Shown: piece by piece, positions 43,478-51,108 of the stretch
Layout: every line of letters begins with the position of its first letter
How positions within the stretch are numbered: the stretch's first letter is position 1
Source: Candidatus Micrarchaeia archaeon
Lineage (GTDB): Archaea; Micrarchaeota; Micrarchaeia; Anstonellales; Anstonellaceae
Length of the DNA: 64,000 nucleotides
NCBI GenBank assembly: GCA_041650255.1
Contig: JBAZLL010000002.1
Location: forward strand, 38,932-102,931
Reading direction: 5' to 3'
The notes under the pieces: model-generated
The model's database searches: none
What the model was told of the DNA's origin: nothing
What the model saw: the letters and a program-made list of their open reading frames with translations, nothing else
Program-made: the position numbers and the translations under genes

Positions 43478-45670
43478 ATGGTCAGAAAGGAATACGTTGT
43501 GGACGAAGTACAAAAAATGATGAGCAATCTAAAAAATGTGCGAAATGTCGCCATTTGCGCTCACGTTGACCACGGTAAAACCACACTAACCGATTCATTG
43601 GTCGCAAGAGCAGGTCTCATTTCAAAGGAAACTGCCGGCGAACAGCGAATGATGGACTTTGACGAGCAAGAACAGGCAAGAGGAATTACAATCAAATCCG
43701 CAAATATTTCATTGGCTTTCCATCTTAACGGCGATGATTATCTAATTAACCTCATTGACACTCCCGGGCACGTTGACTTCGGAGGCCATGTAACGAGGGC
43801 AATGCGAGCAGTTGACGGAGTCATTCTCGTGGTAGATTCGGTGGAGGGAGTAATGCCTCAGACCGAAACCGTTCTTAGGCAGGCTCTAAAGGAAAAGGCA
43901 AAGCCGTGTGTATTCATAAATAAAGTTGACCGCTTGATAAACGAGCTAAAACTTACCGACGTGCAAATGCAGGAACGCCTCGTAAAAATTATCACACATA
44001 TCAACAAGCTCATTTTACAATATGCGCCTTCAGAGCACCGTGAAGACTGGATTATAGATGTAAAGAAAGGAAATATCGCATTCGGCTCGGCATTTCAGAA
44101 ATGGGCAATGTCTATTTCCGCAATGAAGAGATTCAACATCAAATTCTCGGACATAATTTCAATGTGCCAAAATGGCCAAACAAAAGAGCTCGTGGAAAAG
44201 GCACCACTTGACGACGTGCTTTTGGACATGATGGTAACTCATCATCCATCTCCGGACTTCGCGCAAAAATATCGTATCCCGACCATTTGGAGAGGCGACT
44301 TGGAATCCGAAACAGGAAAATCGCTAATGACATGCGACCCGGAAGCAAAAACAGTCGGAGTTTGCATCGGCGTAGTAAACGACCCGCACGCAGGAGAGGT
44401 TGCAATTGTGCGTCTTTTCGCAGGCAGGGTAAGAAAAAGCGACATGCTTTATCTCGCATCAAAATTCAAAGAGGAAAAAGTCCAGCAAGTGGCAATTTAC
44501 ATGGGTCCGGATCGAGTAATGGTGGACAATGTTATTGCAGGAAATATCGTCGGCATAGTCGGTCTTCGTGATGTATATGTAGGAGAAACTATCTCAAACG
44601 GGCAGGTAGAGCCTTTTGAACAAATCAAGCATTACTCTGAGCCAGTCGTTACAAAATCAATTGAGGCAAAAGACTCAAAGGATTTGGCAAAACTGATTCT
44701 TGTATTGCGTTCGCTCACAAAAGAGGACCCAACACTTCGAGTTGAGCTCAATCAGGAAACTGGTGAGCATCTAATATCTGGTATGGGAGAGCTTCACTTG
44801 GAAATCATTGAGTATAAAATCACGAAGGAGAAAGGGGTTGCAATTACAACTTCCCCGCCTATCGTGGTTTACCATGAGATACTCACCGGAAAAGTGGACA
44901 GGCCTGTTGAAGGAAAATCTCCAAACAAGCATACCAAACTAAAATTCTTGGTCGAGCCGTTGGAAAAGGCAGTTTACGACGCAATTATTTCTGGAGATAT
45001 TCCGGATGGTAGGCCAAAAGGCAAAGCGGTGACTGAAAAACTCATTGAGCTTGGAATGCCGCGCGACCAGGCAAAAGCGTTAATTACAATCCACAACAAA
45101 AACATTCTAATTAACGACACACGAGGAATTCAGTATCTCAACGAAATTATGGAGCTTGTGGTACAAGGATTTGAAGAGGCAATGGACAAGGGTCCGTTGG
45201 CAAAAGAAAAGGTCGTTGGCACAAAAGTAAGCATAGTTGACGCCGTAATCCACGAAGACCCGGTACACAGAGGTCCTGCGCAGATTATTCCTGCGACAAA
45301 GAGACCAATATATGCCGCTCTTTTGATTGCCGGTTTGACTCTGCAAGAGCCAAAGCAGAAAGTGACAATTCTCGTGCCGCAGGAATTCATGAGCAACGTA
45401 ATCACACTTGTTCAGGGAAGAAGAGGGCAGGTGCTTGACATACAGCAGGAAGGCGAACAGGCAACCGTGATTGCAAAAATCGCAGTGTCCGAGCTTTTCG
45501 GCTTTGTGGATGCATTGCGCTCTGCGACACAGGGAAGGGCAATTCCATATCAGGAATACGAGGGATACGACAACCTTCCGCGCGAAATGCTGCTAAAAAC
45601 CGTACAGGCAATTCGCAAGCGAAAGGGAGACAAGCCCGAACCGCCGACTCCAAACGACTTTTTGGATTAA
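43478..45670 (+). CDS. fusA: Translation elongation factor aEF-2
   Basis: AHVDHGKTT, RGITIKS, DTPGHVDF, NKVD, GMGELHL, HEDPVHRGPAQ diphthamide site; start 43478 after GAGAGG. Confidence 0.98.
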   Translation: MVRKEYVVDEVQKMMSNLKNVRNVAICAHVDHGKTTLTDSLVARAGLISKETAGEQRMMDFDEQEQARGITIKSANISLAFHLNGDDYLINLIDTPGHVDFGGHVTRAMRAVDGVILVVDSVEGVMPQTETVLRQALKEKAKPCVFINKVDRLINELKLTDVQMQERLVKIITHINKLILQYAPSEHREDWIIDVKKGNIAFGSAFQKWAMSISAMKRFNIKFSDIISMCQNGQTKELVEKAPLDDVLLDMMVTHHPSPDFAQKYRIPTIWRGDLESETGKSLMTCDPEAKTVGVCIGVVNDPHAGEVAIVRLFAGRVRKSDMLYLASKFKEEKVQQVAIYMGPDRVMVDNVIAGNIVGIVGLRDVYVGETISNGQVEPFEQIKHYSEPVVTKSIEAKDSKDLAKLILVLRSLTKEDPTLRVELNQETGEHLISGMGELHLEIIEYKITKEKGVAITTSPPIVVYHEILTGKVDRPVEGKSPNKHTKLKFLVEPLEKAVYDAIISGDIPDGRPKGKAVTEKLIELGMPRDQAKALITIHNKNILINDTRGIQYLNEIMELVVQGFEEAMDKGPLAKEKVVGTKVSIVDAVIHEDPVHRGPAQIIPATKRPIYAALLIAGLTLQEPKQKVTILVPQEFMSNVITLVQGRRGQVLDIQQEGEQATVIAKIAVSELFGFVDALRSATQGRAIPYQEYEGYDNLPREMLLKTVQAIRKRKGDKPEPPTPNDFLD

Positions 45671-46030
45671 GCCAAAAGTTTTTTCTTTTTCTTTTTATTT
45701 TCTACTTTTTTATATTCGAAAAATCTTTGTACAGCGTTAACTATTTATAATTTGCCAGTCTGACTCCTGCGATGTTCTTTCTTTTATTCGTGCAAAAGTC
45801 GGAGTTTTTACGGGTTCGTACAAACAATTGCAATCCCAAATTCATAGTTTTTGGGCTGCCTTTCTCTAAAACAAACGTTCTCGTAAAATGTGGTTCGAGT
45901 AACAAATGCCCGTTCCAAGAGCAACATCCATTTAAGCCCAGCAAATTTACATGTTCAAAATCAAAAGATCTAATCGTGGACGATATTCGCAAACTCTGAT
46001 TTTATCATTTTGGCAACATTTTGGCAAATA

Positions 46031-46067
46031 TTTAAATAAAGTTAATCACATATAACTTTTGGAGGTG
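46031..46067 (+). promoter_or_regulatory. TATA box plus Shine-Dalgarno for the micro-ORF
   Basis: TTTAAATA 46031-38; GGAGGTG 46061-67, 5 nt before ATG. Confidence 0.65.
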
Positions 46068-46072
46068 CTTGA

Positions 46073-46114
46073 ATGGATAAGAAAGGAAAGAAAGGCGGCT
46101 GTGGATGTTGCTAA
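46073..46114 (+). CDS. 13-aa micro-protein MDKKGKKGGCGCC
   Basis: Strong SD and TATA directly upstream; below the ORF-track cutoff. Confidence 0.55.
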   Translation: MDKKGKKGGCGCC

Positions 46115-46234
46115 ATAACTCCATCGCTAAGCCAAAATATTCGGGCTTTTGGCGCTTTATTTTGACCCCACATACACCAAAATAAAGTTGCCAAAACCCA
46201 AAATTCTCACTCGCAACTGTTTTTATTCTTTCAA

Positions 46235-46534
46235 GTGCCATCTTCTGATATGGTTGATAAAAAAAAGCCCAGTTATACACTTGAGCCTTACAAGCATTAT
46301 GAAGACATGATGCTCCCAAAGTACAAAATAACCATGACTACTTCGGCTGAAAAAGTCATCAGCCAGGAAGAGGCAAAAATGCTTGTGAACATGCTTTCCC
46401 ACGAATTTAGCGAGCGACCTCATCTAAACTCATTTCATTTTGAAAAAGTGGGCTTGTGGGTGCTAAAAGACAAAAACCATCTTACAATTATTACTGAAGA
46501 AGATAAGAAATCATTTGAAGCAAAAAAGAATTAG
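46235..46534 (+). CDS. Hypothetical protein
   Basis: 99-aa ORF (possible start MVDKKK at 46250) ending 9 bp from a convergent gene. Confidence 0.6.
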   Translation: MPSSDMVDKKKPSYTLEPYKHYEDMMLPKYKITMTTSAEKVISQEEAKMLVNMLSHEFSERPHLNSFHFEKVGLWVLKDKNHLTIITEEDKKSFEAKKN

Positions 46535-46542
46535 GTCGTCTT

Positions 46543-47370
46543 TTATTCATATACAAACGGAGGTCGCGCATCCCAAATTTCAATCTCTTTTTTCTTTGCC
46601 ATCTCAAGAAATATTCTGTGTATATTGCTACCGTATTGCATTGCTTTTTTCTGTCGCTCAACCGCAATTTTTGGCACGCAAAGCAATTTTGCAATTTCGC
46701 GTAAAAGGGGTTTTTTCATCTCTATCTTTCCAATCCTTTTTTTTGCCGGAATCAAAAAAACGGCTTCAATGAGCTCCTTATCCATAAACGGAGTTTGCAC
46801 TTTTAATCCGACAAAATCCGCGACCGCGCCTGCCCGTTTTATATCCCTTTTTGGCAGGCTGGAAATTTCCTCACGCAAAAGTTTGTCCAAATCCACTCCA
46901 TTTGCAAATGCATCATAATATTTGTGATAGCCGACAAAAAGCTCTTCGGCGCCGGAGCCAAAAAGAACTTGTTTATCTCCAAGTGAATGTGCTTTTTTAC
47001 AAACCTCATAAATCGCGCACATAAGCTCAATGTCTGTCAAGGTTCCGGGCATCAGCTCCCACATTTTTTTATAATCCTTCAAAAGAGCCGCCTTATCCAC
47101 AAGTATGATATGCAACTTTATTTGTGTCTCTTTTGTTTCATTTTGTACTTGCAGTTCTTTTGCCGCCGCTTTGGCAGCCTCAACATCCGGGCTTCCTTCA
47201 AGTCCGACTGTAATCAAATCCACGTCGCATTTTTGCATCGCGATTTTTGCAATTGTGGTGGAATCCAACCCGCCTGAAAAAGCAATCGCGATTTTTTTCT
47301 CATTCTGCAAATTTTTCAAAACAGAATTTTGCAAAATCGGAGCAAGTTTTTTCGCATCGGAAATATTCAT
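46543..47370 (-). CDS. Asparagine synthase C-terminal-domain protein (no glutaminase domain)
   Basis: AFSGGLDS PP-loop, GSGAEELFVGY, TPFMD, KKAMQYGS. Confidence 0.87.
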   Translation of the reverse strand: MNISDAKKLAPILQNSVLKNLQNEKKIAIAFSGGLDSTTIAKIAMQKCDVDLITVGLEGSPDVEAAKAAAKELQVQNETKETQIKLHIILVDKAALLKDYKKMWELMPGTLTDIELMCAIYEVCKKAHSLGDKQVLFGSGAEELFVGYHKYYDAFANGVDLDKLLREEISSLPKRDIKRAGAVADFVGLKVQTPFMDKELIEAVFLIPAKKRIGKIEMKKPLLREIAKLLCVPKIAVERQKKAMQYGSNIHRIFLEMAKKKEIEIWDARPPFVYE

Positions 47371-50460: not shown

Positions 50461-51108
50461 ATGGGCGAAAACACAAACGACGATACCGGCAAAAACAAAT
50501 GCCGCGGGAATGAAAAATGCAAATGTAATTGTAATGAAAAAAACTGCAACTGTGAATGCACATGCAAAGACAGTCAAGACAAAAATTGTAATTGTGGGAA
50601 TGAAAAATGCGAAGAATACAAAAACGACCTCAAGCGATTGGCTGCGGAATTTGATAATTACAAAAAGAGGGTTGAAAAAGAAAAACAACAAACTCGCATG
50701 GATGCGCAGGCAAACGCACTCGCGCCATTTTTGGATATGAATGATGCATTTGAAACCGCTCTTTTGCACATAAACAAAAAAAATGCAACCGGCGCAGATG
50801 CAAACGGTGTAAAAGTTTATGAAGACGGAATAAAACTTTTGCACAAAAAACTGCATTCAACTTTGCAGTCTTTTGGGGTAAAAGAAATCGCCTGCAAAGG
50901 AATTGCAAATCATCTGTATCATGAGGTAATGCTTCAGGTTCCGGGGGAGCCTGCAGGTGAAATCGCGCAAATATTGCGCAAGGGATACACAATGGGAGAT
51001 TATGTTCTTCGTCCGGCGCAAGTGAGCGTGTTTGCGGGAATATCAAAAGAGGAAAAATCCGCAGAAAACAAAACAGAAAAGTCCGGCGGTCAAAATGAGG
51101 AAAAATAA
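50461..51108 (+). CDS. grpE: Nucleotide exchange factor GrpE with Cys-rich N-terminus
   Basis: LKRLAAEFDNYKKR, YHEV, LRKGY.MGDYVLRPAQV. Confidence 0.94.
   Translation: MGENTNDDTGKNKCRGNEKCKCNCNEKNCNCECTCKDSQDKNCNCGNEKCEEYKNDLKRLAAEFDNYKKRVEKEKQQTRMDAQANALAPFLDMNDAFETALLHINKKNATGADANGVKVYEDGIKLLHKKLHSTLQSFGVKEIACKGIANHLYHEVMLQVPGEPAGEIAQILRKGYTMGDYVLRPAQVSVFAGISKEEKSAENKTEKSGGQNEEK

Follow-up and report, generated by a model that had tools for sequence, protein, structure and literature searches.

Within the window, as the whole 64,000-nt stretch of analysed DNA is called here, positions 46031–46114 are best explained as a stand-alone archaeal micro-gene, in which a promoter with an upstream repeat, a TATA box, a Shine-Dalgarno (SD) sequence, a 13-codon open reading frame (ORF) and T-rich termination signals would together form one expression unit. 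The encoded peptide MDKKGKKGGCGCC is assigned, on the basis of sequence comparison, to an unannotated microprotein family of Micrarchaeia. That the micro-gene is real, conserved and translated was considered highly probable. A metal- or thiol-related function of the peptide is a tentative reading, held with slightly less than even confidence, and the statement as a whole, namely a Micrarchaeia micro-gene together with a metal/redox peptide and the mechanism proposed below, was judged to be evenly balanced.

The source is a metagenome-assembled genome (MAG) of 1.05 Mb in 22 contigs, 89% complete and with intron-bearing tRNAs. Around the micro-gene, EF-2 is followed, after a 400-nt spacer, by the tiny ORF, and this by a hairpin, a small conserved gene, a convergent PP-loop gene and DUF2085. 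The features with their coordinates are collected in Table 1.

Table 1. Features at and around the micro-gene (positions in the window)
Feature	Position	Strand	Remarks
aEF-2 gene	43478-45670		family match
75-aa ORF	45772-45999	+	spacer after EF-2
11-nt tandem direct repeat CATTTTGGCAA x2	46006..46027	+	directly 5' of the TATA box, over the expected BRE position
TATA box TTTAAATA	46031..46038	+	counterpart in G004 is TTTAAATT, 23 nt from its SD
Antisense 95-aa ORF	46032-46319	antisense	rejected as a candidate: not conserved, without family match
Shine-Dalgarno GGAGGTG	46061..46067	+	all 7 nt complementary to the 16S 3' end (...GATCACCTCC, contig C10)
13-codon ORF MDKKGKKGGCGCC + TAA	46073..46114	+	ATG at 46073, TAA at 46112-46114
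Strongly folding 186-nt stretch	46055-46240		z = -5.05
Hairpin	46140..46202	none	25-nt arms, 76% complementary, 13-nt loop
First T-runs past the stop (TTTT, TTTATTTT)	46147..46163	+	possible archaeal oligo-T terminator
TTTTTATTCTTT	46220..46231	+	further T-rich terminator candidate; also the probable TATA box of the following gene
Small neighbour gene	46307..46534	+	frame open from 46250; conserved part from about Met20 at 46307
Asn_synthase-like PP-loop gene	46543-47370		convergent; also in relatives without the tiny ORF
GrpE	50461-50625		starts with a Lys/Asn/Cys-rich extension

A preliminary description of this DNA had proposed a dedicated expression unit consisting of TTTAAATA, GGAGGTG and the 13-codon ORF followed by a stop, and this layout was confirmed position by position. 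The gap between the TATA box and the SD is 22 nt, and the spacer between the SD and the ATG is 5 nt. In archaea, the TATA box usually lies at -26/-27. Given this position and the 22-nt gap, the expected start of transcription is the first G of the SD or a position adjacent to it, and the SD would probably form the extreme 5' end of the mRNA. The ATG is followed by GAT AAG AAA GGA AAG AAA GGC GGC TGT GGA TGT TGC and then TAA, and an in-frame TGA at 46070-72, the codon immediately 5' of the ATG, closes the frame upstream, so that the ORF is not the end of a longer one. The peptide ends in GCGCC-stop, three of its 13 residues being cysteines in the arrangement C-G-C-C, and the consecutive Cys codons TGT TGC lie directly 5' of the stop.

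The tandem repeat, the core of which is also written TTTTGGCAA, is part of the promoter of the mini-gene itself and represents a candidate regulator site; elements of the form TTTYGGCAA(C/A) were also found 5' of the orthologous tiny ORF in the two genomes of the same genus, G002 and G004. An operator common to the mini-gene and the grpE-dnaK promoter was not found. Within this genome, a single further close match to the tandem TTTNGGCAA motif was found, outside the window (G000, C2:116617-117327). There, the double motif is located just 5' of a TATA box and of a gene for a 215-aa secreted protein, which has a signal peptide and, close to the C-terminus, Cys motifs (KFGCEMNDGFDCQH, GNGCNCRH). 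This gene may be co-regulated with the tiny ORF.

GGAGGTG occurs 41 times in the 1.05-Mb genome, both strands counted together. The genome was also scanned for tiny Cys ORFs of at most 30 aa with two or more Cys among the five C-terminal residues and an SD at least 5 nt long, and the MDKKGKKGGCGCC ORF was the only one in which a polybasic body is combined with an ATG start and a 7-nt SD. The module, the hairpin and the upstream spacer have no paralogue elsewhere in the genome. A second mini-gene was noted on the minus strand at G000 C6:~20223, consisting of a TTTAAAAA box, GGAGGTG and a 26-aa ORF, MQGKKRAGKKRAKAEEPTIWEKIVRW, which has no Pfam match and the stop codon of which overlaps the next ATG.

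In the spacer after EF-2, the 75-aa ORF shows a weak likeness to ribosomal protein S27e (PF01667, E 0.0042, below the cut-off), with the zinc-ribbon cysteines partly gone (..RTNNC.., ..KCGSSNKC..). The genome contains no paralogue of this ORF, the relatives lack it, and it may be a decayed gene copy.

Syntenic loci in relatives were retrieved via homologues of the small neighbour gene, which shows 44–58% identity to those in G001, G002, G004 and L020 and has no Pfam or NCBIfam match. In both G002 and G004, a tiny Cys ORF was present at the same site, between EF-2 and the same small gene. The G004 locus reads TTTCGGCAAAT-CTTTAAATT, 23 nt, GGAGGTG, 5 nt and ATG GAC GGA TGC GGA TGC CAC TAA (MDGCGCH), its difference in length from the present locus being an 18-nt in-frame block. 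The G002 locus, with which the metagenome locus L021 is identical, consists of GGAGGTG, 6 nt and ATG GGT CCG GGA TGC TGT TAA (MGPGCC), preceded by the promoter elements TTTCGGCAAC/TTTGGGCAAAT as in this genome and in G004.

The module is missing in G001 and in L020, the closest metagenome relative, where the distance from the EF-2 stop to the neighbour gene is 60–75 nt. The tiny ORF was thus kept in three of six lineages at the syntenic site, and its absence from the other two loci named marks the module as dispensable. Metagenome retrieval anchored on EF-2 yielded 45 loci, with the tiny ORF only in L021. A nucleotide search with the whole spacer in 40 relatives returned only T-rich terminator matches, and homologues of the neighbour gene in genus g3 displayed a different synteny with no tiny ORF upstream. 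When the full peptide was back-translated and used as a pattern with up to three mismatches in 176 genomes of the order, only the query was recovered; the family became visible only via synteny and looser, SD-anchored patterns.

Such patterns were run on 401 Micrarchaeota genomes, each with a reversed-pattern control. The pattern SD - ATG - ...CGC gave 16 hits (reversed control 5), SD - ATG - ...CC-stop gave 30 (control 11), and GGAGG - ATG - ...GCC-stop gave 27 (control 9). For the last of these, 9 of 25 matches were in-frame ORFs ending at the CC stop, and eight of these nine consisted of 40–60% Lys/Arg, lysine being no part of the pattern. All GTDB species genomes were also scanned for MDKK..CGCC-stop, which produced 12 hits; the two in frame, G048 and L081, both belong to Micrarchaeota and both stand behind AGGAGGTGA, and all ten bacterial hits were out of frame.

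Together, the two scans yielded ten further tiny ORFs in addition to those of G002 and G004. Two of them are associated with DnaK: MDKKKSKKSGCGCC in G048 begins 18 nt after this gene, and MDKKKAKHSGCGCC in L081, a Candidatus Anstonellaceae MAG, closes a dnaK operon. The others are MTGPGKKPCCGC in G016, which follows a ferric-reductase-type membrane protein, MGGKKKPGCC in G010, MAEKKGKKAGGCC in G269, MPEKKSRKKHGCC in G252, MSGPKKPKKGGGCC in G274, MGGPKKPKKGGCC in G374, MYGKKKKKGGCC in G213 and MTCSCCGCGKKTAKKKTTKKKKK in G270, the layout of which (Cys head, Lys tail) is the reverse of that of the family. The common scheme of the family is Met, a basic stretch rich in Lys, Gly and Pro, then Gly and a CC or CGCC tail before the stop, in 6–14 residues altogether; the tails of relatives vary between CC, CGCC, CCGC and CGCH. 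All members have a 7-nt SD, and the spacer between SD and ATG is 5 nt, or 6 nt in G002. GGAGGTG is identical in G002, G004, G048, L081, G010, G016, G269, G252, G274 and G374, most of which were found with patterns demanding this very sequence. Since the patterns required the SD and the Cys codons, the apparent conservation of both is inflated and the true prevalence underestimated. The peptides are too short and too biased in composition to prove common descent, and their homology is suggested by the recurring layout.

The 23-aa ORF MTCSCCGCGKKTAKKKTTKKKKK (L079 1013-1084, G270:C22), which stands behind a perfect SD, overlaps the 3' end of the preceding gene and converges with NAC. Two proteins of 47–49 aa starting with MDGCGCYGSRGF or MGGYDCGCYGMRGF (L077 1015-1158 in G275; L078, minus strand, G213:C1:~663755) were also noticed; they have TTTAAATA promoters and perfect SD sites, and their head, which is followed by a coiled coil, matches the G004 peptide MDGCGCH. 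These MDGCGCY proteins of another family matched DUF5320 only weakly (E 0.1).

The DnaK system of the present genome provides a further observation. The extension at the start of GrpE reads KCKCNCNEKNCNCECTCK..NCNCGNEKC, and in G048 and L081 it is the dnaK operon that instead ends in a Lys/Cys tiny ORF. Cys/Lys modules thus seem to be linked to the DnaK system in this family.

The preliminary description had named codon-level conservation in related genomes as the property to look for, and it was found in G002, in G004 and in the members of the wider family. Between G048 and L081, there were eight synonymous differences (including the stop) and two non-synonymous ones; between G274 and G374, eight (including the stop) and one; and between this genome and G004, four and one (Cys to His). 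Because the search patterns had fixed some codons, a recount was limited to the unconstrained ones and yielded 11 synonymous and 4 non-synonymous differences over three independent pairs, compared with about 20% synonymous expected for random changes (P ~1e-4). Indels within the family comprise whole codons, and the flanks of the members are unrelated apart from the SD and T-runs, the oligo-T tract in relatives lying about 8–35 nt 3' of the tiny-ORF stop. The six orthologous short transcripts were no more structured than their shuffles (z from -0.44 to +1.68), and a search of Rfam at gathering and permissive thresholds returned nothing relevant. The mostly synonymous differences, whole-codon indels, unrelated flanks and lack of a fold beyond shuffles point to a translated micro-gene, not to an RNA gene or a broken longer gene. 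The preliminary description had also raised the possibility of a frameshifted longer gene to which the SD and ATG would belong; this did not hold, as 13 lineages stop right after the Cys tail with TAA, TAG or TGA.

These data also bear on the reading that the locus is no gene at all, which would make it either a chance product of an AT-rich spacer or a non-coding small RNA that mimics an SD and an ORF. Its extreme shortness, its absence from G001 and L020 and the three other GGAGGTG-ATG pairs of the genome, which open 3-codon frames by chance, are consistent with such an origin. However, 13 lineages from at least four families share the tiny ORF, with the codon pattern just described and with three different stops, its in-frame GTDB-wide hits are confined to Micrarchaeota, and neither an Rfam match nor structure exceeding that of shuffles was detected. 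The reading can be regarded as largely refuted and is extremely improbable.

The 186-nt stretch listed in Table 1 does fold strongly, owing to the hairpin and to pairing between the Lys codons and the T-run. The hairpin is lineage-specific, occurring in a single copy in this genome and being absent from G002 and G004, and therefore lies outside the conserved unit. As the Lys-codon/T-run pairing is also absent in relatives, the stretch was rejected as an RNA gene or attenuator.

The same stretch was relevant to a regulatory reading, in which the tiny ORF would be a cysteine-responsive leader: ribosomes would pause at its Cys codons when Cys-tRNA is scarce and thereby alter mRNA structure and downstream expression. 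The two to three Cys codons within the last four codons would suit this role, as would the minimum free energy fold of 46055-46240 (z = -5), which pairs the SD/AUG region with a T-rich stretch 5' of the next gene. A precedent is provided by the mycobacterial polycysteine sORFs (Canestrari et al., 10.1101/834739), which are leaderless, head polycistronic operons of cysteine metabolism and act via ribosome pausing, the peptide itself being irrelevant; two consecutive Cys codons are enough for attenuation in Mycobacterium smegmatis (10.1101/834739). Like the present family, they are unannotated, only a few codons long and conserved across species, with consecutive Cys codons. In contrast to them, the archaeal ORFs are SD-led, usually stand at the end of a transcription unit, conserve Lys, Gly and Pro residues as well as Cys, and have no cysteine-metabolism gene downstream at any locus.

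The arrangement of the loci also speaks against a leader. In L081, G010, G016 and G270, the tiny ORF is the last one before T-runs or faces a convergent gene, and in G048 it is followed by T-runs and then by a separate promoter-like TATA. In the window, the neighbour gene would be leaderless if the box at 46220..46231 is its TATA box. A CTCTTTTTATTTTTT box homologous to TTTTTATTCTTT is present 5' of the same gene in G001, G002, G004 and L020, of which G001 and L020 are without the tiny ORF, and the neighbour gene thus keeps a conserved promoter of its own whether the tiny ORF is present or absent, which identifies the latter as an independent unit and not as the leader of its neighbour. The fold itself depends on the hairpin that G002 and G004 lack, and the short transcripts are unstructured. 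With the ORF standing mostly last in its transcription unit or opposite a convergent gene, a leader-peptide role was considered quite unlikely.

If the product of the micro-gene is a functional peptide, the main indication of what it might do comes from the gene neighbourhoods of relatives. At six loci (G269, G252, G274, G374, G213 and L081), the tiny ORF lies within or beside metal- and thiol-handling genes. In the first five, the same cluster recurs (loci L113-L115, L119 and L120). It includes a DsbD/SfLAP-like membrane protein (DsbD_TM match weak, E 0.0032), a thioredoxin-like CxxC protein, a membrane protein with an ACCAHH motif, and membrane proteins of 70–95 aa with an N-terminal ...NHxxxMALCC... 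motif that end in ..KKSCH, carry the CC motif in their first helix and match MerT weakly (E 0.024). Larger proteins that carry PCC/CEYCC motifs and terminate in ..GGC or ..SGC are also present, together with YHS (2.4e-8), DUF5676 (8.9e-12), the hydrolase domain of a P-type ATPase (1.2e-29), DUF302, Pyr_redox_2 (a pyridine-nucleotide disulfide oxidoreductase) and TerC. Several of the cluster neighbours have weak or no family matches (DUF411, for instance, at 0.0019). Judging from this gene content, the membrane cluster looks like an undescribed thiol/metal system of Micrarchaeia.

In L081, where the tiny ORF follows DnaK, two HMA proteins (9.4e-13), a membrane-bound wHTH regulator and a cupredoxin-like protein ending in GGGGCGCGG are found 0.6–2 kb away. 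C-terminal Cys/His tails are a theme common to the cluster neighbours and the tiny ORF, the G004 tail GCGCH, for example, resembling ..KKSCH. It is this recurrence of Cys/His tails among the neighbours that suggests a metal or thiol ligand, the step from context to chemistry being conjectural.

Among the functions floated in the preliminary description, that of a minimal metal-binding peptide thus received indirect support from the metal- and thiol-handling neighbours in relatives, but not from the present genome, in which no cluster of YHS, HMA, P-type ATPase and CC proteins was detected by tblastn (MAG 89% complete). The neighbourhood argument is therefore borrowed from relatives. The suggested role as a RiPP precursor was not borne out: no modifying enzyme is adjacent at any of the 13 loci, where neighbour ORFs were inspected for RiPP-type enzymes (radical SAM, YcaO, lanthionine synthetase, ATP-grasp or similar), most of them at eight loci also against Pfam/NCBIfam, and none were seen.

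A different weight is given to the basic residues when the peptide is regarded as a gene-encoded polycation, comparable to tiny basic ribosomal proteins or protamine-like peptides. The Lys stretch would then be the functional part and bind RNA, DNA or the ribosome, the cysteines serving in redox dimerisation or zinc bridging. The Lys/Arg content of 40–60% among unconstrained residues agrees with this, and so do the highly expressed translation and proteostasis genes located upstream (EF-2 here, DnaK in G048 and L081) and the NAC gene beside the G270 ORF. However, the peptides of G004 (MDGCGCH) and G002 (MGPGCC) have lost every lysine and kept the Cys tail, which identifies the Gly-Cys tail, not the charge, as the invariant element. 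A polycation would also leave the placement among YHS, HMA, DsbD-like and Cys-tail proteins unexplained, and this reading was rated unlikely.

The membrane-targeting tails of eukaryotic Rab and Ras proteins combine a polybasic run with a CC or CXC at the end, and fungal lipopeptide pheromones offer a further comparison. By analogy, the C-terminal Cys could be prenylated or acylated and the polybasic stretch could act as a co-anchor, giving a lipid-anchored membrane peptide; many neighbours in relatives are indeed membrane proteins. The resemblance to Rab/Ras hypervariable tails extends to the CC, CXC or CGCC end, but here the peptide is free and 13 codons long, with no GTPase body and no escort-protein context. 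Prenyltransferase repeats of the beta (PF00432) and alpha (PF01239) subunits gave no match at E <= 0.01 in the 1.05-Mb genome (89% complete). As no protein prenyltransferase was detected, the comparison with Rab-type lipidation substrates made in the preliminary description is left unsupported. Moreover, no transferase recurs beside the ORF at the 13 loci, and tails as varied as CC, CGCC, CCGC and CGCH fit ligand chemistry better than the recognition motif of a transferase. A lipid anchor was consequently regarded as very unlikely.

For a metal or thiol ligand, two types of known systems offer comparisons. The smallest metallothioneins are the 25-residue fungal Cu-metallothioneins beginning GDCGCSG..., and the known members have at least 25 residues. 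Metallothioneins are likewise ribosomally made, have no fold of their own and contain Gly with C-x-C/CC motifs, and their G-C-G-C motif matches the tails of the present family as well as the MDGCGC heads of G004 and G275. In contrast, the peptide described here is two- to four-fold shorter, has a Lys stretch that metallothioneins lack and shows no scoreable sequence homology to them. With two to three Cys per peptide of 6–14 residues, the thiolates of one chain alone cannot fill a Zn/Cd site, and a metal-thiolate cluster within one chain is thereby excluded.

In mercury and copper relays, metal is passed between flexible Cys pairs, such as the vicinal-Cys membrane motifs of MerT/MerC, the C-terminal Cys-Cys of MerA, CopZ/HMA and YHS. 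The neighbours in relatives include HMA, YHS, a P-type ATPase and small membrane proteins with CC motifs, as in these relays, but the Cys pair of the present family resides on a free 10–14-mer and not on a domain. MerA, MerP and MerR were not seen, and the whole cluster is absent from this genome. Being several-fold shorter, carrying a Lys stretch and having no scoreable homology, the peptide was filed neither with metallothioneins nor with the Cys pairs of metal relays. A literature search on Micrarchaeota combined with metallothionein, DUF2933/YHS and vicinal-cysteine metallochaperones yielded nothing specific, and no published description of the family was found. Genes of 6–14 codons are invisible to gene callers, and the family ORFs could not have been annotated.

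Under the metal/thiol reading, the following mechanism is proposed. A soft metal or metalloid (Cu(I), Hg(II), Cd/Zn or As(III), for example) would be bound by the C-terminal vicinal thiols, or these thiols would instead switch between the dithiol and disulfide states. The peptide would be kept at an anionic surface, for instance the inner face of the membrane, by its lysine stretch, and metal or reducing equivalents could there be exchanged with membrane and metal-handling proteins bearing similar C-terminal Cys/His tails. In the present genus, the gene would have moved away from these partners to a site behind EF-2 and under its own promoter, and because of this separation the peptide would act here as a free thiol/metal buffer.

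A broader and more speculative proposal, which we consider possible but rather doubtful, is that Micrarchaeia, and perhaps other ultra-small archaea that are not known to make glutathione-type thiols, encode their low-molecular-weight thiol directly in the genome. The cationic vicinal-dithiol peptide would then be the mobile cytoplasmic partner in a relay of Cys/His tails (..KKSCH, ..GGC, ..GCC), carrying soft metals or reducing power to the membrane and away from it, and its gene would rank among the shortest conserved stand-alone protein-coding genes known.

The family represents one type of gene of 6–14 codons that appears to be conserved in four or more Micrarchaeia families and to be under selection for its peptide sequence. 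Hardly any archaeal microproteins with a plausible chemistry are on record, and the peptide is a concrete candidate of this kind that can easily be synthesised. Should it prove to be a gene-encoded thiol/metal carrier, it would help to account for the way in which genome-reduced symbionts lacking known pathways of thiol biosynthesis deal with metals and oxidants, and it would tie an uncharacterised membrane cluster (DsbD-like and CC-motif proteins, YHS, DUF5676) to a testable function.
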